A stretch of 57,675 bases of DNA, counting the filler, from Asterionella formosa (taxonomy: Eukaryota), in assembly GCA_002256025.1 (NCBI GenBank). It is 6 parts of 6 records of this genome, joined end to end, with 100 filler letters (N's around TTAATTAATTAA, not from the genome) between each part and the next. Parts side by side here need not be neighbours in the genome. Positions count along the whole stretch, not along the records: positions 48,153 to 57,675 come from NKIB01010578.1; 5 more parts are not named here. One strand, written 5' to 3'. Made by a program: the position numbers and the translations under genes. Positions 1,644 to 57,675 of this stretch are shown one piece after another; position 1 is the first letter of the stretch; each line of letters begins with the position of its first letter. Under the pieces are notes generated by a model. It had not been told where the DNA came from. It worked only from the letters and a program-made list of their open reading frames with translations, and did no database searches.

Positions 1644-3092
1644 ATGACAACAATCTCCACTATGCAATCATTTACGCAGCCAGTTTTCGCCAGTGCCAAC
1701 TGTGAAAGTCAGTATAATAATGCTCCAACAACATCATGGGGCGGGTCTGACAATGGTGCCGATGGGTTTGACTTCGACCTGTTGGCCGAATATCTTCTAG
1801 ATGATGGGTCAGCTCCTAGTGCATACACAGGAAACATGCCAACTTTTGATTTCAAGTGAGTATTTCTCAGGAACTGATTCTCTGGTTTTCATCCGACACC
1901 ATTCTCACTCAAATCGTGATCGTATGGTCGTTTTGCCACATAAAGTATTGACCCTGGTTTAACCTCTGGTGTCGTTTCACCCGAACAAAGTGATGACGGC
2001 ATGCCTATGATTTCGCCAGAAGGGCAACTGGCACCTGGATCATACCAAACCACACAGCTTTTAGCTCCATCTCAGTCTGCATATTATCAACCCTCGTATG
2101 CTCCACAAGCCCCGCAGCCAATGCAACCACCAGCCACTTTGGGCCATACTGCTTTGCTGGCATTGCCTGCGTACCAACCTACCGATATGCATACTCCAAT
2201 AATGCCTCCTGTGGCCAGCACTGCTGCCGTGGCAGCTGCGGTGGCTGGAAACAAAAGGCGTCGTGTGGATGCTCCAGTGATGCCTCCTCGAGCCCCAGCG
2301 TCTCTTGTCAATCAAGGACATGCGATGGCAATGGCAGTTCGCGGCAGACAAAAATCGCAAGCTCAGGTAGATCGTCGCCGAGAGAGAAACCGTATCTTGG
2401 CACGACGAACACGTCTCCGAAAGAAGTTCTTCTTTGAGGGTCTCCAAAAGGAAGTTACCGACTTGCAACTTGAAAATGCTGCTCTCAAGGAAATTGCCAA
2501 AAATGAACTCCCTGAAGAGCAGTCCAAGCAGCTACTGGAAGACTGCAAAGCTATGGACAACCTGCCAGAGGGCATTGCTGAAGCATGCAACGAAGGTTTG
2601 GATCTTGATTCTCAAGATTTTAGCCTTGTTCGAAGTATACAAAGATCCCAGCGGTGCTTTATTATCACGGATCCAAGTCTTCAAGACAACCCCATTGTCT
2701 ATGCCTCAGATGATTTCTTGTCTCTTACTGAATACAAGAGAGAAGAAGTATTGGGACGTAACTGTCGCTTCCTGCAAGGTACTGAGACTAGTACGCACAA
2801 GTTAGAAGAAGTACGCAAGGCTATCGCGAATGGAGAAGACGTTAGTGTTACAATGATCAACTACACGGCAAACGGTACCGCATTCTGGAACAAACTTTTT
2901 ATAGCTGCCCTCAGAGACGCACACAATAACATTGTAAATTTCATTGGCGTTATCGTGAAGGTCGCACACCCTGATCCCGAAGATCCCGAGTCTGGCAAGC
3001 GATTGCCAGGCGAGCAATCAACTGGCTCTGACGAAGACGACGACGGGGATTTCGACGACGCTGCCATGGGATTCGACTCTCATGACATGTGA
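1644..3092 (+). CDS. AUREO2: Aureochrome 2 (bZIP + LOV); exons 1644-1855 and 1946-3092
   Basis: bZIP RRRERNRILARRTRLRKKFFF followed by LOV (DNPIVYAS...GRNCRFLQG). RILARRTRLRKKFFF and NFIGVIVKV match my recollection of diatom AUREO2. In-frame GTGAGT...AAAG intron at 1856-1945. Confidence 0.93.
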
Positions 3093-5208: not shown

Positions 5209-6195
5209 TTCAGTGGTGACCCGGTCAGGAGAAATGGTCGGAAAACAATGTTCGTTTCGAAGTTAAGGAAATAACCAATGAGAGGGAGAGAGATTACTCG
5301 CCCTGCTTGCTCGTCTACTTGAATAGGAGCAATGGTAATGAGCGAGGCAGCAGATTATGATGGATTCAGGGTTTATGTGATTATGTGATAAATATAGTGT
5401 TACCTAGTAGTTTCAGATTGACGAAGCCATCACTTTGAAATCACGTCGGAAGCAAGAATGAAGCGCAAATGCATCATATACTAGGTATGATTTTCAGGAA
5501 ATGACTTCGACTTAGATCAGAAAATTCCTACTACCGGTATGAATTTCAGGAAATGACTACATATATGACTTCCAGGAAACGTAAGGAAAAGCTTAAAGAA
5601 AATCGCACTGTCGCATGATGTATGTTGAACAGTATCTAACGGATCGAGGTACCTGGTACCTGGTATGCTGTTCAGTGTTCACCACTCGCTCGTTTTTGCA
5701 ACACTGGAAGAATCTAATTATTTACTTCTTTAAATCGTGGAATGAAGTGAAGACGTTCTTTACATATGACGATTTATGCGCTTGTCCGTCGCGACCTTGC
5801 TGTCCGTTTCAGGATAATGACCGCAATTTCCTGATTTTTGTACCCACTCTTGTGGACATATCTAAATAATTAAAACTGTCATTGTACCAGATGCCAAGTA
5901 CCTCTTGTTGTACATATTGATGATAGGAATATCATACTGAAACCATACAAGTAGAAAATGAGAAGGACAACGAATGAGAACAATTATGCTGAAACTGCAC
6001 AGAGCGACAAAAATCGTTGGTAAACTGCACAGAGAAAGATCTGCACGCCTTTGGTTTAAAATGTGTCGAAATCCTCGCCGATGCCGCAGCAACCTACCGG
6101 TAGGTACTATTTTTCAAAAGGTACCTTACAGTTGCGTTTTTGAAGGCAAGTGTAAACAACAACAGCTCCTCTTTCTTTCTCTCTGCATCTTGTTG

Positions 6196-9548: not shown

Positions 9549-9648
9549 NNNNNNNNNNNNNNNNNNNNNNNNNNNNNNNNNNNNNNNNNNNNTTAATTAA
9601 TTAANNNNNNNNNNNNNNNNNNNNNNNNNNNNNNNNNNNNNNNNNNNN
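9549..9648. other. artificial scaffold linker (N44-TTAATTAATTAA-N44); also at 19176-19275, 28803-28902, 38428-38527 and 48053-48152
   Basis: Identical 100-nt linkers with six-frame stops. The intervening segments are sorted by length. Confidence 0.97.
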
Positions 9649-14662: not shown

Positions 14663-14734
14663 TGCTGTTTGGCGCAGGGGAAGCGTGTTGGGCTCATAAC
14701 CCAAAGGTCCGAGGATCGAAACCTCGAACAGCAA
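14663..14734 (+). tRNA. tRNA-iMet: initiator tRNA-Met (CAT)
   Basis: Acceptor stem TGCTGTT/AACAGCA. Anticodon stem TTGGG-CTCATAA-CCCAA with three G-C pairs. T-loop ATCGAAA (A54, A60). T-run terminator downstream. Confidence 0.95.
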
Positions 14735-16142: not shown

Positions 16143-17401
16143 ACCTTGTCTTTGGCCTCCCAGACATAGTTGGATTGTTGGATTTGAATGTAAGTAAGCG
16201 AGAAGAGGAAGTGACGCGAATTCATAAAGATGATTTACATTCATCCACCAGTGCGCCAAAAACTGAGTTGGCGATGTCCATAAAATCGTCGTACCTTTAT
16301 TGCGTATCTTTTTATGACGGATTCGGGTAGCGCGCCCAGCAGCATTCGAGACATCATTTATAATCATGAAAAATTCATACACATGTGATAGAAGTGGACT
16401 AAAATAGTTTCGACAACTTTCATANNNNNNNNNNNNNNNNNNNNNNNNNNNNNNNNNNNNNNNNNNNNNNNNNNNNNNNNNNNNNNNNNNNNNNNNNNNN
16501 NNNNNNNNNNNNNNNNNNNNNNNNNNNNNNNNNNNNNNNNNNNNNNNNNNNNNNNNNNNNNNNNNNNNNNNNNNNNNNNNNNNNNNNNNNNNNNNNNNNN
16601 NNNNNNNNNNNNNNNNNNNNNNNNNNNNNNNNNNNNNNNNNNNNNNNNNNNNNNNNNNNNNNNNNNNNNNNNNNNNNNNNNNNNNNNNNNNNNNNNNNNN
16701 NNNNNNNNNNNNNNNNNNNNNNNNNNNNNNNNNNNNNNNNNNNNNNNNNNNNNNNNNNNNNNNNNNNNNNNNNNNNNNNNNNNNNNNNNNNNNNNNNNNN
16801 NNNNNNNNNNNNNNNNNNNNNNNNNNNNNNNNNNNNNNNNNNNNNNNNNNNNNNNNNNNNNNNNNNNNNNNNNNNNNNNNNNNNNNNNNNNNNNNNNNNN
16901 NNNNNNNNNNNNNNNNNNNNNNNNNNNNNNNNNNNNNNNNNNNNNNNNNNNNNNNNNNNNNNNNNNNNNNNNNNNNNNNNNNNNNNNNNNNNNNNNNNNN
17001 NNNNNNNNNNNNNNNNNNNNNNNNNNNNNNNNNNNNNNNNNNNNNNNNNNNNNNNNNNNNNNNNNNNNNNNNNNNNNNNNNNNNNNNNNNNNNNNNNNNN
17101 NNNNNNNNNNNNNNNNNNNNNNNNNNNNNNNNNNNNNNNNNNNNNNNNNNNNNNNNNNNNNNNNNNNNNNNNNNNNNNNNNNNNNNNNNNNNNNNNNNNN
17201 NNNNNNNNNNNNNNNNNNNNNNNNNNNNNNNNNNNNNNNNNNNNNNNNNNNNNNNNNNNNNNNNNNNNNNNNNNNNNNNNNNNNNNNNNNNNNNNNNNNN
17301 NNNNNNNNNNNNNNNNNNNNNNNNNNNNNNNNNNNNNNNNNNNNNNNNNNNNNNNNNNNNNNNNNNNNNNNNNNNNNNNNNNNNNNNNNNNNNNNNNNNN
17401 N

Positions 17402-18930: not shown

Positions 18931-19280
18931 TAATGTCTATTACTGAGTATGTCAGTGCTGCATCGCTTCCGATCCAGCACTTCTTGCCCACTGTCTAATC
19001 CTATAGTAGACAGACCATTATCCCTTTCTGCTTCCTTCTGTCACAGACACGTTTCTCTTGACATTCGCACGCTAGTATCGATAGTGCAATATATCACTTG
19101 TTATCTGGGCGGAATGGCAAATGTTCCGAGTGCTACAAGGAATGGAACGGTATTGGTTGTGAAGGGGATACCAATNNNNNNNNNNNNNNNNNNNNNNNNN
19201 NNNNNNNNNNNNNNNNNNNTTAATTAATTAANNNNNNNNNNNNNNNNNNNNNNNNNNNNNNNNNNNNNNNNNNNNTATCA

Positions 19281-20033: not shown

Positions 20034-20959
20034 GGTGTGTTTGTTGGTTGGATTGGATTGGATTGGTTCCTATAGTTAGTGATATTTAGTTGTAAAGGTA
20101 ACGTTGCTGTTAGTTTTGGAAATTATTTGTTTTATGCCGATAAACCACGAAAATTTCTGTTCCCTTTTCCGACTATGTACCAATACATCTGCCACAGAAC
20201 GTGGTGCCTATTTATTAGATATAAATCGTGATAAGAGCAGTTGTAAGAACCGTGCGATCGTCTGACGTCGCGTTTCTTTTTTGGTTTTTGTACATCGATG
20301 CATGAACTGGAGTACCGGTAGTAACCAGGTACCAGGTGTGAAGTCATTTCAACCAATAAAACGTATGCCATCGTGTGTTAAGTACTCTGAGTCCCAGTTA
20401 CCAGGTACAAGGTACCATACCGTTGTGTACTGGATACCAGGATCACGACTACTTGGTACCAGGTACCTGGTACCAGCAAGTTGCGGTCATTTTGCCGAAA
20501 CTGAAACGTGGCACCGGCAGGCACTCAAATTCGATTCCTCCGGAATAATTACTTAGACATTTAGGAATTTCAAACGGTTTCACGCTGGCCAATTAATTTC
20601 AATTATATCAAAATCTAATTTTAAAGAATAATTTTCTGAAAAAAACAGGAGTTTCCCAACTTTGCTACGATTGGGGTTTTTTCCGAATCATAATTCTGAG
20701 TGTCGAGATTCCTTATTCCAGAAAGCTCCTTGTTTACATCCATTTCATACTCCTATGATACGGGTACCAGGTACCATGGCACCAGGGAACCTGGTAATAT
20801 GAATTTAGAGAAGTGAACAGCTGTGGTATATTACCAGCACATCATATGGTGAACACACGGGTACGCACCATGCATGATGTTCTCTATACTGTTCATACAT
20901 ACATATTTATATGATTGCTCATGTAACGAACTTGAGAAATTCCCCATCACTTTGCAAAC

Positions 20960-24660: not shown

Positions 24661-25380
24661 TCCTCTCCCCCTAATATGTTTATAAAATCTGAAACTTATG
24701 GTAATAAAACTAGTTTCCAATGATGCTCCTATCTCCTATGTATGTACCAATTGATGTACTACCCAATATATCAGCATGTGGATGCAGGAGGTACCTGGTA
24801 CCTCCTGGTAAAATATATGCTCAGGGCGGTCTTTGCCGTAGTCACGTGATTATTTTCGTATTCTATCGCCTATTACTTTGTGGTGAGTTGCCCCCTGGTA
24901 CACACCTGGTACCCTGGTACCAGGTACCAGGTACCTGAGACCAGGTTACAGGCAATGTTCCATATCACCATGCTCCTTGAACATTATTTATATGTATGCA
25001 TATATATGATAAATAAAAAAATAATAATAAATATCATTTATGATGTCGTTCTGTTGATTTCGACATCAAGGATGGCATACGAACGGATTCTGGATTCCGT
25101 CCTCTTTTACACTCGTGTGTGGAAAATATCGTATGTAGCCTATTCATATCTGACCTACGTAAATGTCGAAGTGTTTGGTGAAACTGAAATCTTGTGACGA
25201 AATCATTCAATCAGAACAATTCTAACACAACAGCTAGGGTCTATTCCGGACTCCTCTTTATACATAATGCATCATACCATTTGGCTTTTGTTGTCACAAA
25301 AAATTTATTTTGTTATTTTGAGTTGAGAAACAAGCCATACTTTCCCATCGAATCACACACACATACCCACACACATCATC

Positions 25381-28802: not shown

Positions 28803-28902
28803 NNNNNNNNNNNNNNNNNNNNNNNNNNNNNNNNNNNNNNNNNNNNTTAATTAATTAANNNNNNNNNNNNNNNNNNNNNNNNNNNNNNNNNNNNNNNNNN
28901 NN

Positions 28903-38015: not shown

Positions 38016-40169
38016 GATTGTTTGGCGAGAAGTGAGAGTTCCTCAAAGTCAATGGAATTGTTCAACTGTGTTGCTTCTAGCAAAACAAAAACCACTCTGG
38101 AGGTGCAAATTGCCAACTGCAGAGCGTTTCTTTCATTCCAATAATTGTTTTTTGAAGGGCAGCATTCCCAGGTTGATGAATGGACTTTGAGACAGTGTCA
38201 ACACAGCTGCAACAGCCATCAAGGATGCATCAATTAGCTACATCAAACTAAGCTGATGATGACACTATGTAATAAATAAATAATTTTAACGATACTACGA
38301 AACTAATCCCAATTCAAGGCGACAGTAAAGGAACTCCTACGTAGCTAATAAACATACGTGCACAAAGAAAGCTCCAATAAAATGCAGAAGGTATTTGGTC
38401 CTTTCCACTTGCAACTCCCAATTCCCANNNNNNNNNNNNNNNNNNNNNNNNNNNNNNNNNNNNNNNNNNNNTTAATTAATTAANNNNNNNNNNNNNNNNN
38501 NNNNNNNNNNNNNNNNNNNNNNNNNNNTAATATAGTGATGATCAGGAATGCATGCATGATACTCTGATCAAATAATGAACGTGATGTATTCAGATAATAT
38601 ATAGATATATTCAAGTAAGCATTTTGATGTATTCAACTAATTCATGTGATCCATTCAAAATCAACTAGGCTTATTTACGTGATGGTCACTTCATGTAATA
38701 CGCGGCTTAGATGTGGATGTCGTTGCTCAGTCCCAAGTTTTTGACTCAAGACTTTGAAGCTGTAGCTAGTTCTGATGATTCATCACTCCCCCCTAGCAAT
38801 AATAGTCTACTAGTTGCTTTTTTGCCTTCTTCTTCTCGTTCTTGTTGTTCACTTCTCCTTCTCCTACTTCTTGATTTAAATTCATCTCCTAGACCAGCCA
38901 TGGTCAATTTACCATTTGAATCAAAGGCAGTATGTAGAGTAACTTCATTCTCTGTACTACTACCACTACTAGATGAATTTACGTGGTGGCCAATATGAAA
39001 ATTTTGACCATCATTACCCCAAACTCCACTGATTCCCCAAAAGCATTTCACTCATGATTATACAAACAAATCTAAAAGCTCTTGGGAAATCACTTTTGCA
39101 AAGGAAACAGTGGTGATATTGAGCAACATGGTGATCTGATCGAAGCAAACTAATTGGCATGATACTCCTTCCTGCAGTACTAGGGATAAGGATTATATAT
39201 TTTTCCCAGACCTGCGCAACGATAAATAATATTTTCTTGCAACCAGCCTTAGGACACCGGAGTAATTCATAAATGCATCCGTTCAAGAAACTATCTTGCT
39301 TGTCCGCCCAAGATTGAAGTGCCAGATGTAAGTCAATAGGTGATGTTTTGCATATACTGTACTAACATACTAGCTACCGGTTCTAGGTACTGCCTGGTAC
39401 CAGTACCAGTACACTACTGGTACTATGTACTCCGGAGTACATAAATGTATGCGTTGAAAAAATATGGCTGATCTTGCCTCTCCGCCCATGTACCTGTTAC
39501 TCCAAGACTTAGGCACCACAGTTCTGGTACCAGGTACAGCTGCCCTGGCACTGGTTGCAGGACCAGGATCAGTTACGGTACCTGGTACCAGGTACCTCCT
39601 GGTACTGGTAATTTGTTTTCTAGCTATTACCGGTATGTCGTCTACATTTCGACATGCCAGTATTCACCGAACGGACTCCTGCCGCTGGCGGACCCACCAT
39701 GAGTCACAACTTGACCACTAGCAAGTTGTGGTAGTTTGCTTAAATAAACAATTTAATCTGGGATAAAGGTAGCTAAATCTTTGATTCAGCAAAATTACCG
39801 CTACGTCAGCCCTTCGATCATTCGGTCATTGCTACACAGTGCGGAACTCCATCACGTGGGGATATGTCGTCACATGTTAAAAACCTACAAAGAAAACGAA
39901 GTAACCTCAAAAAGAGATGGTCAAGATTGTTCAGTATGTCATTCGAATAAATGAATTAGCAGTATCTTGCTCTCATGCGTACGACTGGATGAAACGCACG
40001 TAAAGAAACCGTTTAAATCTGTGAGTGGAATTGCTGGGAATCATCTTTGTCTCAAAAATTCAGTAACAGCCGAACGTAATTGTCATTTCCATAAATTGTA
40101 CCAGGTACACTAAAATCACTCTCTTCGTTCTCTCCTCCATCCCTTCGATTGACCGAGCGCTCCCACACA

Positions 40170-48052: not shown

Positions 48053-48152
48053 NNNNNNNNNNNNNNNNNNNNNNNNNNNNNNNNNNNNNNNNNNNNTTAA
48101 TTAATTAANNNNNNNNNNNNNNNNNNNNNNNNNNNNNNNNNNNNNNNNNNNN

Positions 48153-53196: not shown

Positions 53197-53880
53197 TGCA
53201 GGTACCTGGTACCATTTATTGTGTCATTGTTGTAAGGTGTCAGAAAACTCTTTGATAACGACAGCAATTTGTACATAAAGGAGTACCAGGGTAGGTACCT
53301 GGTACTGGTCGTCTAGTAAACCCAATGTACTGGCATGTAACAAGTTTTTTTAGAGAAAGCAACTGCCGGTACCAGTACCAGTGTACCTACCGGTAGTCTT
53401 CGTACATTATGTAAATTCATTCCGGTTTACCGGTACCTGGCAGTAAGTAGTCTGCAGATATGTGGTGCACTGTGGTGTCGGCGCCGTCAAACCCAACAAG
53501 CACCATACCCGATACCGGTCTATCGCAAGATATAGGATAATGATCAAGCAAGAGGAAACCACGATTTTTCATGCTTCTTAGAGTCGTTCTTATCATTTTC
53601 GATTTGGTATCATTTTTTTGAAAAAGTATCATGTAATGGCTACTCAATTTAAACCGAAAAAATCCATTCTCCACAAAAATAAAAATGAAATTGTATCACC
53701 AAAAAGTATCACGAAAATTCAACGGTTATGGGCTGGCTACAATCATGTGCATATCCCTCCAGGCTTCCCTCCAGACTATTTCGATAATTTTCCATGACTA
53801 AAACCATGTAGGAAAACTACGCGTATTATGTACCAGTATAGAATATATAGCTGACATACCTGCTAAATTCTTGATTTGCC

Positions 53881-55250
53881 ATGAGTCAACACAGACATGC
53901 AAGATTGTCTATACACTTCTTCTTACACTTCCGCTTGATCAACGATGGCAATGATGATTATGTTAATGATGTCATCAGTAATCAATTTTTTGATAATGAA
54001 AACAACCATAAATTCTTTGATTATGATGACCATGATCAATTATTTATCCTTTGTCATCTGGCTCTGGAGGCTGAAACGAAAGTTAAAAAGAGGAAGGCGA
54101 AATGGGAGCATGAAAGAATGTCATGGCATTCTCTTGTCAAGAAGCTGTGTCATGAGGACGTTTTGAAAAGACTTATAGAATGTCCCTTCGAGCCTTTAAG
54201 AAGTTGGTTTACTTGCTGGAGAGTGATGTCATTGGGAATTTCTCCAAGTGCGGTACAGCTACTCCCATTTACCCAGAAATTGTGCTGGCTGTTGGCATTT
54301 GATGGTTGGCTGGAGGCAGCTACATGTTGACATTTGTCATGCCTATGGATGTAGCATAGCTTCAATCTATAGATGCCGAGACTTATTTCTTGAAGCTGTG
54401 CTTAACTGTGATTATCTGAAAATTATATTTCCTAAAACAAGGAGTGATTTTGTGAAATTGGCTATAGCCTTTGAACAAAAGAGCATGGAAGGGTTGATCA
54501 GAGGGTGTGTTGGTGCTATTGATGGTTTTCACGCTACATGACTGTGGAAACAATCCAGGAGCTTTTTATTCTGGACATTAGTACATGACTTATGGTATCA
54601 ATGTTCAGGCTATCTGTGATGTTGAGAGTAGATTTATATTTTTTGGGGTGATTGCTCCTGGACGATGCAGTTATCAAGTTGCGTTTGAGAGAACTGCTCT
54701 ACCCAAAAGAACTGCATTATTTGATTCTGGTTTCTATCTTGTTGGTGATGCAGCATATACATTGTCAGATGTCATGTTAGTTCCATTTGTTGGTTCTCAG
54801 CATGATGACCAAACACAAGATGCCTATAATTTTCTTCTTTCCCAGCTACGGATTAGCTAGGATAGAGATGGCATTTGGTTTGTTACAGACAAAATGGGCT
54901 GTTCTAAAAAGAAACTTAACAACTGGCTTGGAAACAACTGCAAAAGTGCTTGAGGTATGTGCACGGTTGCACAATTATGTCATAGACGAAAATAAAGTTG
55001 ATAAGGATATTTCTGGGTCATCTGGAAGTGATGAGTCAGATGACATCCAGGAGATTTTAGCTGAAATCACCCCAGTCTAAATTCTCCACTTGGTTGGGGA
55101 TATTTGCCAACGGTTGAGAAATTGGATGTAATGCCTGGTTGTTCTGTCATTCGAGATGTTATTCTTGAAAGAATTGCTAACATGGGTTTACAAAGACCTC
55201 CAGGTAATATTGAAAGAAAAAGGTTGGAATTACATGAATTAAATTTAATG
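53881..55250 (+). pseudogene. Harbinger DDE_Tnp_4 transposase, frameshifted
   Basis: GCVGAIDG, YGINVQAICD, YLVGDAAY and RIEMAFGLLQTKW...CARLHNY across four frames. Confidence 0.9.
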
Positions 55251-55299
55251 TAGATTATAATTGATTGTTGAAAAAAATTATTCATTTCATTGTGTCACC

Positions 55300-56800
55300 T
55301 TGAGACAAGAGATTGAAGACCTGATCACGCTTTCTTTTACACAATGCAATTTCTAAACGAGCTTGGACAATGTCAGAACTTGAAGAGTCATATTTCTTTT
55401 CGAGTTCTTCCAGTTCCTCCCGCGCAACTCTTAGCTAGTCGGACCTTATACTTATCCAAGACATCCAGTAGATCATTTTCTCTGCGTGGTGCAGTTGTAG
55501 ACTCAAGCAGTCTGAGTTTTGCAACATTTGACTTCTCAAATGATTCCAATGCACTTGCAAGTTTTGATAAGATGATGTAGGTTTTTGCGTCAAGATTGCA
55601 TGTCTTCCCTTCTTTCTAACACTGAAATTGCTTGAAGATTTTGATTTTGATGACAATATGGTGGCAGTATCGTCAATGTCTGTACTCTCACGGAAGCAAG
55701 GCATAATTTGGTAACAGTGGTATAGCAAAATTCAATAGATGCGGAACTTGACACAACCAAAGATGGTAGTAATATATGAAATGACATGACCCAACAAAGT
55801 TGACAAAATCATCATGATTGCCTGATTGTTTGTTTTTTGGATAGGCAACTTGATAATGATGATTACTGTACCCCACTACCAATGAAAAGTCTTTCGAAGT
55901 GAGGAAATCATATTTTTTGCGTAGTCAGCATCAATTCCAACTTGGTCCCAGTATTCATCTTCGGGAAATGCTAGAATGGTACAGTCGTCATCCTCATCAT
56001 CAATATATGTGACAACAAGTCGATCGAAAATGAACTTGTGTCGAAATCTTCTTGCATCAAATTCAGCCAGAGTTGGTGGCTGACCTAGACGCAAAACATC
56101 ACTGCGATGCTTGTTGCACATGTAGACATTAATGACATGGAAGAATGTGTTGCTGCAGATCACAGCATCTGGAGGGGTTGACTTTGCCTGTGCCTTATTC
56201 TTTTTCGCTTTTTTTACAGGAGGGTTCACTTCCTCTTGTTCAAACTGAGGATCAACCAAAGACTCATGTGGCAGCACTGCTGTTGCCTCTTGAACTTTGT
56301 CGTTCCTTTCATCATTATCATCTTCGCAATCTTCATCAACTTTGAATTCCTCGTCATTAATTGATGAAAGTTCGTGATTATCATTATCACTATCCAATTC
56401 AATGTCTGATTCATTGACATTGAAAGATCTAGGGTATATCCTCTGTGACAAGCTGTCTCTCTTCAAAAGTCGAACAATCAAAGCAACAGTGAAAGCCTTC
56501 TTCGCATTTTTGTATCCAGAAACTTTGTATCTGACGCAAATTTTTCGGAGAACCTTGACTGAGATCTGCTTCATTGCAACACCTTTGATGAAAATCACCT
56601 GTGTCCTTGCTTTCACTATCAAGCACAAAGTCATCAGGAAGTATGAGGGAGTCAACAAATCGATCGACTTCAGTATCTGTAGCAAGAGACTGCATTGTAT
56701 TGTTGAAGGTGGTGGGTTGATCTTGATATAAAGTGGTCTCCACATCAACAGTTGTTGTTTGCGTTTGTGTGACTGGTTCCATATGCGGTTCCATTTGCCT
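55300..56800 (-). pseudogene. Harbinger accessory ORF2, convergent with the transposase, frameshifted
   Basis: ORF 55876-56748 plus flanking fragments lie inside the TIRs. Basic LRKICVRYKVSGYKNAKK segment and an acidic tract. Confidence 0.7.
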
Positions 56801-57350
56801 TGCTTGTAGTATCTTCAGGGAGATTCCAATGACTGATCTGTAGTAACAAATACACAAAAACACTTGGGAGTTACAAGATCGCCAATATAAGTAAGTGGCA
56901 AGTATAAGTTTCTTTCTGGTGCTGTATAATTGTATCAATGGTGTTGCTTGGACGATGTAGTATGCAGCCAGCATAAAATTGAAGGAATAGTATATGCCAT
57001 TAATATTATTGGTGGTGCCTTGCCTTGCAGGCTTATTTTTGGTTATTTTATTAGTGACAACGGAAAGGATACCCGCATGAAAATGTCAGTATCACTGATA
57101 TTGTTTTTGGAGGGGGCAAAAAAAGGTATCAATTTTGTATCAATGATACAACATTGATACCATCAAGTTACTGTTGCTGATACCGTGTTTTGATACCAAC
57201 CGTCACTTTTTGCCCGCAACCCGGAAATGATACAGCAAATGCGGAATGATAAGAACGACCCTTAGTACATAGCTACCGGTATGTAGAAGAAGCAGCCCAT
57301 TCAACATGGATATGCAGTACCAGGTACTCCTACCACGTATTACTGAAGGA

Positions 57351-57675
57351 AATACACGCCCGAGGTGGTCTCTTGCCTGCGAGGTACCTGGTACCTGGTA
57401 CCTGGTACCTGGTACTGCAGCTGCTGCTGCTGCAGCTGCTGGGTTGGCTGACCGGGGAAGGACGGTTTTACCTACAGGTACGCAACAGGTATTCGGGAAC
57501 CAGGTACCAGGTACTTTACTGGTACCAGTATACATGTGTTCGAGGCTGGGTGGCGCGAGTAGGTTGACCGTACGAGTGGCGCCCCCGGCGCTGCGAGAAG
57601 GTCACCCTACGAGTGCCATCCCAGTCGAGTACACATGTATACGAGAAGGCAAGTAGCCGCCGAGAAGGGTATTGT
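57351..57675 (+). other. fold-back element with periodic CGAG/CGAG tandem G.A pairs, interrupted by a ~143-bp GGTACC-array insertion
   Basis: Hand pairing puts five CGAG pairs in register once 57384-57528 is removed (see findings). Confidence 0.8.
57384..57526. repeat. insertion bounded by (GTACCTG)n on the left and (CAGGTAC)n near the right, with an internal (GCT)n run
   Basis: GTACCTG x4 at the left end and ACCAGGTACCAGGTAC near the right end. Flanked by AG on both sides. Confidence 0.8.

Follow-up and report, generated by a model that had tools for sequence, protein, structure and literature searches.

The terminal repeats of parvoviruses and adeno-associated virus (AAV) are composed of a terminal palindrome and a non-palindromic D sequence, and their circular and concatemeric forms contain 'double-D' junctions with a single palindrome. 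In minute virus of mice, one orientation is fixed by a GA/GAA mismatch bubble of the left-hand hairpin. Drosophila FB and Galileo are reportedly fold-back elements with long structured inverted repeats. At the RNA level, tandem sheared G·A pairs occur in kink-turns, C/D boxes and loop E, and the retroviral constitutive transport element (CTE) contains two-fold symmetric internal loops. IS200/IS605 elements, Helitrons and Replitrons carry strand-specific imperfect end hairpins, which are protein-recognition signals on single-stranded DNA. Replitron hairpins are short, and the describing paper (PMC10288648) reports none in diatoms.

The window analyzed here is a stretch of 57,675 nucleotides from the diatom Asterionella formosa (assembly GCA_002256025.1), and the locus under study lies at its right-hand end, where the initial annotation had marked a long fold-back element with a pattern not known to it from any named family. 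Rfam searches gave no match: for positions 56500-57675, the best hits had E values of 0.3-10 and 14-22 bits vs. gathering scores of 47-249, and 0 matches at E<=1 were obtained with three related metagenome loci (L001, L002 and L003). Likewise, no description of such a hairpin was found in the literature searched, mostly at abstract level.

Each of the nearest known systems differs from the diatom repeat in a defining feature. As in parvoviruses and AAV, the palindrome lies exactly at the tip and is followed by a short inverted-repeat part outside it, junction copies carry one palindrome between both extensions, and purine-purine mismatches make the strands or orientations unequal. In contrast with those viruses, the diatom repeat occupies thousands of chromosomal sites, shows no sign of coding capacity, folds into a rod of ~95 pairs instead of a T or Y shape, has six regular G·A sites rather than one bubble, and was found in both orientations relative to one body at none of nine ends; nor was a Rep-like gene found. 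It shares with fold-back transposons and MITEs a high copy number, non-coding sequence, long terminal inverted repeats (TIRs; putative in the diatom repeat), internal short-period structure and frequent rearranged copies. However, the left end of a fold-back transposon pairs with its right end, whereas in the diatom repeat pairing takes place within each end. There, CGAG faces CGAG, and not CTCG as in an ordinary inverted repeat. The hairpins of IS200/IS605, Helitrons and Replitrons measure 10-20 bp and lie on one strand at both ends without being inverted, compared to 199 nt for the diatom hairpin. With the tandem G·A RNA motifs and the CTE it has in common 5'-YGAR-3' opposite 5'-YGAR-3' and a long hairpin with the same loop sequence in its two arms, but no 3-nt bulge abuts the G·A pairs, since a C-G pair intervenes at every asymmetric loop, and the sixfold periodic repetition is a feature of the diatom hairpin and not of kink-turns, C/D boxes, loop E or the CTE.

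Table 1. Features of the hairpin locus, in window coordinates.
Feature	Coordinates	Strand	Remarks
Outer left arm of hairpin	57340..57383	+	First repeat base 57340; TGAA half-site 57344-57347; CGAG at 57361 and 57380
Secondary insertion, 145 nt	57384..57528		Small fold-back outside the hairpin family; missing from other copies
Inner left arm	57529..57583	+	Three stems, separated by CGAG at 57541, 57556 and 57573; based on folds
Apical CCC loop	57584..57586	+	Based on folds
Right arm	57587..57675	+	CGAG at 57594, 57610, 57626, 57642 and 57661; continuation known from L001-L003

The ten CGAG words on which the initial annotation was built were all found at the positions claimed (Table 1), and CTCG, the word expected in one arm of an ordinary inverted repeat, was indeed absent from 57351-57675 (0 occurrences) and from everything beyond 57000. 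The whole window contains 120 CGAG words, that is, ~0.7 per 325 nt, compared to ten in 57351-57675, where successive words are 15-21 nt apart and three right-arm sites have the longer word CGAGAAGG in common. The pattern CGAG-N10-18-CGAG-N10-18-CGAG was matched six times in the window, always on the + strand and within 57541-57664, while shuffled sequences yielded a mean of 0.06 and at most one match (0/100 reached six). No second copy of the hairpin core was found elsewhere in the window, in which only the GGTACC heptamer runs recurred. Over 57527-57675, the window copy and L001 were 100% identical (149 nt).

Once freed of the insertion, the hairpin measures 199 nt. In its minimum-energy fold, every left CGAG sits opposite a right CGAG, as had been claimed (5/5 in register); C1 and G4 of each word pair with G4 and C1 of the mirror word, leaving a 2x2 G·A/A·G loop at all five sites. 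By eye, a sixth site of the YGAR type (TGAA opposite TGAG) forms the outermost internal loop, with one half beyond the window end. The right arm stops 12 nt short of the end of the 199-nt palindrome, so the element is cut by the window end, as the annotation had stated. The stems it had listed do pair overall but are less perfect than described: the outer stem (57365-57379 / 57646-57660) has three mismatches and two G·T pairs, 57560-57569 / 57600-57609 contains one T·C, and 57545-57555 / 57614-57625 contains a 1-nt bulge.

The two strands were far from equivalent. RNA parameters gave the flagged region -183.4 kcal/mol on the + strand (z -12.0) and -149.1 on the - strand (z -7.2); DNA parameters gave -87.3 and -77.9, respectively. 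When both strands of the insertion-free hairpin were folded, the CGAG sense of L001 reached -112.5 kcal/mol compared to -84.8 kcal/mol for its complement. Similar values were obtained for L003 (-110.6 vs. -84.4 kcal/mol), while L002, which carries a short form of the hairpin, gave -40.5 vs. -28.5 kcal/mol; the energy gap between strands was thus 26-28 kcal/mol in the two full copies and 12 in the short form. The claim that G·T wobbles favor the + strand also held, with nine G·U pairs on the CGAG sense of L001 vs. two on the complement. Taken together, the 5/5 CGAG register, the fold energies and the nine vs. two G·U pairs indicate that the structure belongs to one strand. The CGAG sense is moreover fixed relative to the rest of the repeat, since the CGAG strand ran 5'->3' from tip to body at 9/9 ends with a known body and in the opposite orientation at 0/9, which, with the wobble bias and the energy gap, supports the annotation's view of a strand-specific element.

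We then mapped four public sequencing runs onto the 1,676-nt stretch 56000-57675, namely an algal sample (X1), a wastewater run (X3), a run from a single named organism (X8) and a metatranscriptome (X19). X1 contains 0.84 of the words of the stretch and could be its source, and uncovered parts in X3, X8 and X19 were not counted as evidence. In X1, 23,894 contigs fell on the stretch and the summed depth rose from 19,067 in the bin 57288-57343 to 1,564,177 in the bin 57344-57399; because of this jump, a separate and very abundant repeat was taken to start near 57340. Pieces of the stretch were present in 24 runs of 17 studies, which sampled freshwater, marine and wastewater sites. RNA libraries account for six of the 24 runs and include a poly(A)-selected one, although all six could contain DNA and their contigs carry no strand information. 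Shares of around one third fit a situation in which only repeats are deep enough to assemble.

Copies were also recovered by other routes. One exact-pattern scan of metagenomes provided the three loci L001, L002 and L003, while exact-pattern scans of viral contigs and of genome contigs gave 0 matches. An exhaustive HMMER search with an ORF from the hairpin returned nine matches, two of which were dropped as chance matches, namely P0004, an ORF over a long tandem repeat, and P0009, a repeat protein from bacteria; in all, the hairpin-ORF searches contributed eight further protein records (P0001-P0003, P0005-P0008 and P0010). A search with an ORF from the adjoining body, B, gave 29 protein clusters, and an ORF from its far end gave three longer records (P0040-P0042). 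These records were placed back on L001 by tblastn; copies beyond the three loci are thus mostly translations of spurious ORFs, with their DNA inferred from the reading frames. Of the identities that the annotation had offered (ncRNA, replication or packaging signal, non-autonomous mobile element), the last gained support, as the fold-back is the terminal domain of a repeat found in thousands of X1 contigs and in numerous further runs.

The stretch 57384-57528 had been regarded as an insert, which is proved by natural copies without exactly that stretch, L001 and L003 being uninterrupted. In the runs, a joined form (57381->57527) skips 57382-57526, that is, 145 nt with a cut ambiguous by 2; it was present in 22 contigs of X1, one of X3, two of X8 and six of the RNA run X19 (31 contigs in four runs). 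The insertion is itself a small fold-back with arms made of (GGTACCT)n / (ACCAGGT)n heptamer runs, and most of it (57395-57523) recurs with one difference in an unrelated 1,759-nt contig of X3. The outermost stem of the window copy is broken by two substitutions (57342 and 57350) and, because of these and the 145-nt insertion, the window copy is a decayed, dead one.

Arrays of GGTACC(A/T) heptamers, often forming small fold-backs, are scattered in intergenic DNA of the window, which has 44 GGTACC in 57.7 kb; besides 57384-57528, they lie at 485-503, 5645-5665, 20411-20476, 20763-20776, 24790-24936, 39526-39597 and 53201-53214. By eye, the window, L003 and P0005 all have GGTACC-like runs within ~10-45 nt of the tip of the hairpin, a hint that the two element types may share a target preference.

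Comparison of the copies defined the order of the repeat from its first base: the 199-nt hairpin, a non-palindromic extension of ~28 nt, and an AT-rich, non-coding body that measures 900 nt or more. The outer boundary was readable in 11 copies, eight of which have unrelated flanks (the window, L002, L003, P0003, P0005, P0007, P0008 and P0034), while the other three (L001, P0001 and an X8 contig) have the same left flank, F_L. Inward of the hairpin, body B was found in six copies (L001, L002, L003, P0007, P0034 and P0035) and a different body, B', in three (P0002, P0003 and P0006). As B' is the reverse complement of F_L, the three F_L copies are composites that read reversed B', one hairpin and then B. 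The hairpin and extension therefore adjoin two bodies with the same inward polarity (six B, three B'), and no contig spans an entire element. To the right of the hairpin, L001-L003 have more than 500 nt in common, whereas their left sides differ. In L001, a 32-nt segment just left of the hairpin matches the conserved sequence on the right in reverse complement at 26/32 positions, and a fold of L001 including this inverted extension reached -158.0 kcal/mol vs. -129.8 for the opposite strand. The extension in X8 has another sequence, of which the left and right versions again match each other (loose ends 57339 and 57674).

GGCAA/TTGCC words were enriched in the loci, with 17 in L001 and 11 each in L002 and L003, compared to ~1.5-1.9 in shuffles (for L001, 1.8 ± 1.4, largest 7 in 500). 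They are spread over F_L, hairpin and B in L001, with GGCAA(T/G) in both orientations in the body, and constitute an enrichment of subterminal short repeats of the kind that marks TIR DNA transposons. Homology between F_L and B was not significant, the local alignment scoring 38 vs. 28.8 ± 4.0 in shuffles (largest 43). No conserved ORF was found in the shared body, the ORFs of L001 and L003 being short and not conserved in frame. Past the end of L001, body B stays conserved for a while, and P0040-P0042 then part from one another at different positions, a sequence pattern that fits internally deleted non-autonomous copies. Among the copies recovered, none had both ends or both flanks; no target-site duplication was seen in them, and no transposase, Rep-like gene or autonomous copy was found. 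Because no copy with both ends was seen, B and B' may be two subfamilies rather than two ends.

Deletion and rearrangement of the hairpin were observed repeatedly. A short form with the joint 57379->57626 was present in 12 contigs of three runs, as well as in L002, P0034 and P0035. Among the rearranged copies, P0010 combines an outer part of normal sense with an inverted inner part, P0001 carries a partial tandem duplication, and in P0006 half a hairpin is joined to F_L; palindrome-driven rearrangement seems frequent. At 400-1008 of L002 (locus coordinates), to the left of its short hairpin, lie phage-like genes encoding a tail-fibre-like C-terminus and a small protein. The latter ends in WIAEGNT, a motif whose codons, by eye, fall on the ~20 nt with which the repeat begins. 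The L002 contig (coverage 1.5) is probably an assembly chimera.

The hairpin was less diverged than the body. L001 and L003 differ at 4/202 hairpin positions and 47/508 body positions (Fisher p = 3e-4), a 4.6-fold difference; only four hairpin positions differ among the three DNA copies. Pairing survives two of these four differences (G·U -> G-C and C-G -> U·G) and is lost at the other two. Among the X1 variants listed, 57625 T>C was the only one in the hairpin proper, and it turns a G·T into a G-C pair. By eye, CGAG is lost by C->T in diverged copies, namely at the L003 site matching 57610 and in P0005; as CGAG contains a CpG that decays in old copies, its constancy in young ones is no proof of selection.

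From these results, the flagged fold-back is very probably the terminal domain of a mobile repeat. As for the kind of repeat, our tentative choice, held with somewhat less than even confidence, is that hairpin and extension form a self-palindromic TIR of a non-autonomous DNA element and act as a single strand. Copy number, the sharp tip, the 9/9 polarity, the inverted extension, the GGCAA words, the constraint on the hairpin and the strand bias all lend this reading support; against it, it is not obvious why a cut-and-paste transposon, which moves as double-stranded DNA, should need a fold specific to one strand.

The main rival to a DNA element is a retroposon, in which the hairpin would be an RNA structure at the 5' end of a retroelement (SINE-like, other non-LTR or non-autonomous) and B and B' would be two subfamilies with a common head. 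Such a head would act as RNA, be it as a promoter, a stability element or a handle for a reverse transcriptase or packaging protein. We consider it unlikely, even though it accords with the sharp 5' boundary and variable left flanks, with a head more conserved than the body, with an RNA-parameter fold that favors the would-be transcript sense, and with the presence of the repeat in six RNA libraries (one poly(A)-selected), including six RNA contigs with the joined form. The composites L001, P0001 and the X8 contig, with their 26/32 inverted extension, are hard to explain by retroposition, and the GGCAA words, in both orientations and in both bodies, resemble DNA-binding sites. By eye, A-box-like and B-box-like words are adjacent (57551-57572) and not spaced as in tRNA heads, the body exceeds 900 nt, a tail or 3' end was not seen in the copies recovered, and no Rfam small RNA matched. 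Another retroelement reading, which we rejected as extremely improbable, takes the repeat for the start of an LTR, so that in copies preceded by F_L an internal region would be followed by the 3' LTR, the remaining copies being 5' or solo LTRs. It drew on a T-TG start (by eye), on purine-rich bases just left of the tip in several copies and on a word resembling a tRNA primer-binding site (PBS) at the end of L001. That word is private to L001 and does not match the 3' end of the window's initiator tRNA; because three other copies (P0040-P0042) read on there through conserved sequence, the repeat does not end at it. Furthermore, F_L followed by an opposite-sense hairpin and then unrelated DNA, as in P0003 and in part in P0002 and P0006, is impossible for an LTR.

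The design of the hairpin might also be a by-product. A functionless, unstable palindromic minisatellite, at most a source of small RNAs that silence the family, would have a 16-nt unit (CGAG plus a palindromic 12-mer) that puts CGAG opposite CGAG automatically; 57529-57540 / 57630-57641 and the apex are indeed near-palindromes flanked by CGAG (by eye), deletion derivatives are common (the 57379->57626 joint of 12 contigs in three runs, L002, P0034 and P0035), and the inner part of P0010 is inverted. Nevertheless, three arm pairs are mutually complementary without being palindromes, which needs compensatory change or a structured origin, and the 4.6-fold lower divergence of the hairpin, the nine vs. 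two wobbles favoring one strand and a polarity fixed at 9/9 ends all speak against this account, which we regard as distinctly unlikely. Very unlikely, in our estimation, is a role in duplex DNA only, with the ten same-direction CGAG words as direct-repeat binding sites that mark the tip side of the palindrome and with incidental G·A pairs. Short subterminal repeats are usual in DNA transposons, all ten words share one orientation at a spacing of 15-21 nt, and three right-arm sites have the longer CGAGAAGG in common, but the pairwise complementarity of the spacers and the nine vs. two G·U bias would be left unexplained.

Other candidates were set aside. A fold-back MITE, in which the whole element is one hairpin, was dropped because of the right flank conserved over more than 500 nt in L001-L003 and the 29 protein clusters; a Helitron, because the tip reads ...CAGCAA where the hairpin would be 3', not CTRR (by eye), and the hairpin measures 199 nt; and a kink-turn, because each of the five sites is a symmetric 2x2 loop with a closing C-G pair at either side, without a 3-nt bulge.

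Returning to the self-palindromic TIR of a non-autonomous DNA element, the TIR would comprise ~230 bp, the outer 199 bp of which are self-complementary, and B and B' would be the two subterminal regions of one element, with copies bearing both bodies as head-to-tail junctions that retained a single palindrome. When an end became single-stranded during replication, transposition or transcription, the strand starting at the tip would snap into a rod ~95 pairs long, in which six stacked tandem G·A sites would recur about every 16 nt, which in an A-form helix amounts to ~1.5 turns. Along with the GGCAA words, the G·A sites may give polarity and regular landmarks to an otherwise symmetric palindrome, putatively read by an element-encoded protein. 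A more specific version, which we deem quite improbable, has single-stranded hairpin termini and a fold-back intermediate (rolling-hairpin-like or HUH-like), the six phased G·A sites fixing the processed orientation and the junction copies being circular or concatemeric relics; if true, it would be a new route for a eukaryotic cellular repeat to thousands of copies.

If the DNA-element reading holds, this transposon end is built on a principle outside the usual catalogue: each terminal repeat would be a long hairpin, the symmetry of which is broken, on one strand only, by evenly spaced and thermodynamically stable purine-purine pairs. It would also suggest that an abundant diatom repeat passes through a single-stranded stage, and provide a natural case of tandem G·A sites arrayed in phase to serve as a scaffold for recognition. 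A phased, strand-specific mismatch design of a mobile-element terminal hairpin is undescribed in the literature searched. On the practical side, the family, which occurs in data sets from freshwater, marine and wastewater sources, breaks assemblies and is misread by gene callers as protein-coding: no fewer than 40 of the protein records retrieved are spurious translations of the repeat.

Several other features of the window were recorded. A decayed PIF/Harbinger-type element occupies 53875-57267, with frameshifted DDE_Tnp_4 pieces at 54582-55080 (E 4e-11), a 312-aa ORF on the minus strand (55876-56814) and an end (57034-57267) rich in GATAC/GTATC words by eye. Harbinger-type remnants and another high-copy stretch thus lie just upstream of the hairpin, and the stretch from 56000 onward is as deep in X1 as the hairpin repeat. 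At 2001-3089 (+), the window encodes a bZIP and LOV/PAS protein of the aureochrome type, the nearest atlas clusters of which are commonest in Bacillariophyta; because of this protein, the host was placed among diatoms or other photosynthetic stramenopiles. Paired 44-N runs at 9549-9648, 19176-19275, 28803-28902, 38428-38527 and 48053-48152, that is, every 9,625-9,627 nt, look like masking rather than biology, and a 977-N gap lies at 16425-17401. Finally, a tRNA-Met gene was located at 14663-14734 (+), with initiator hallmarks by eye, namely an anticodon stem containing three G-C pairs and a T-loop that reads AUCGAAA.
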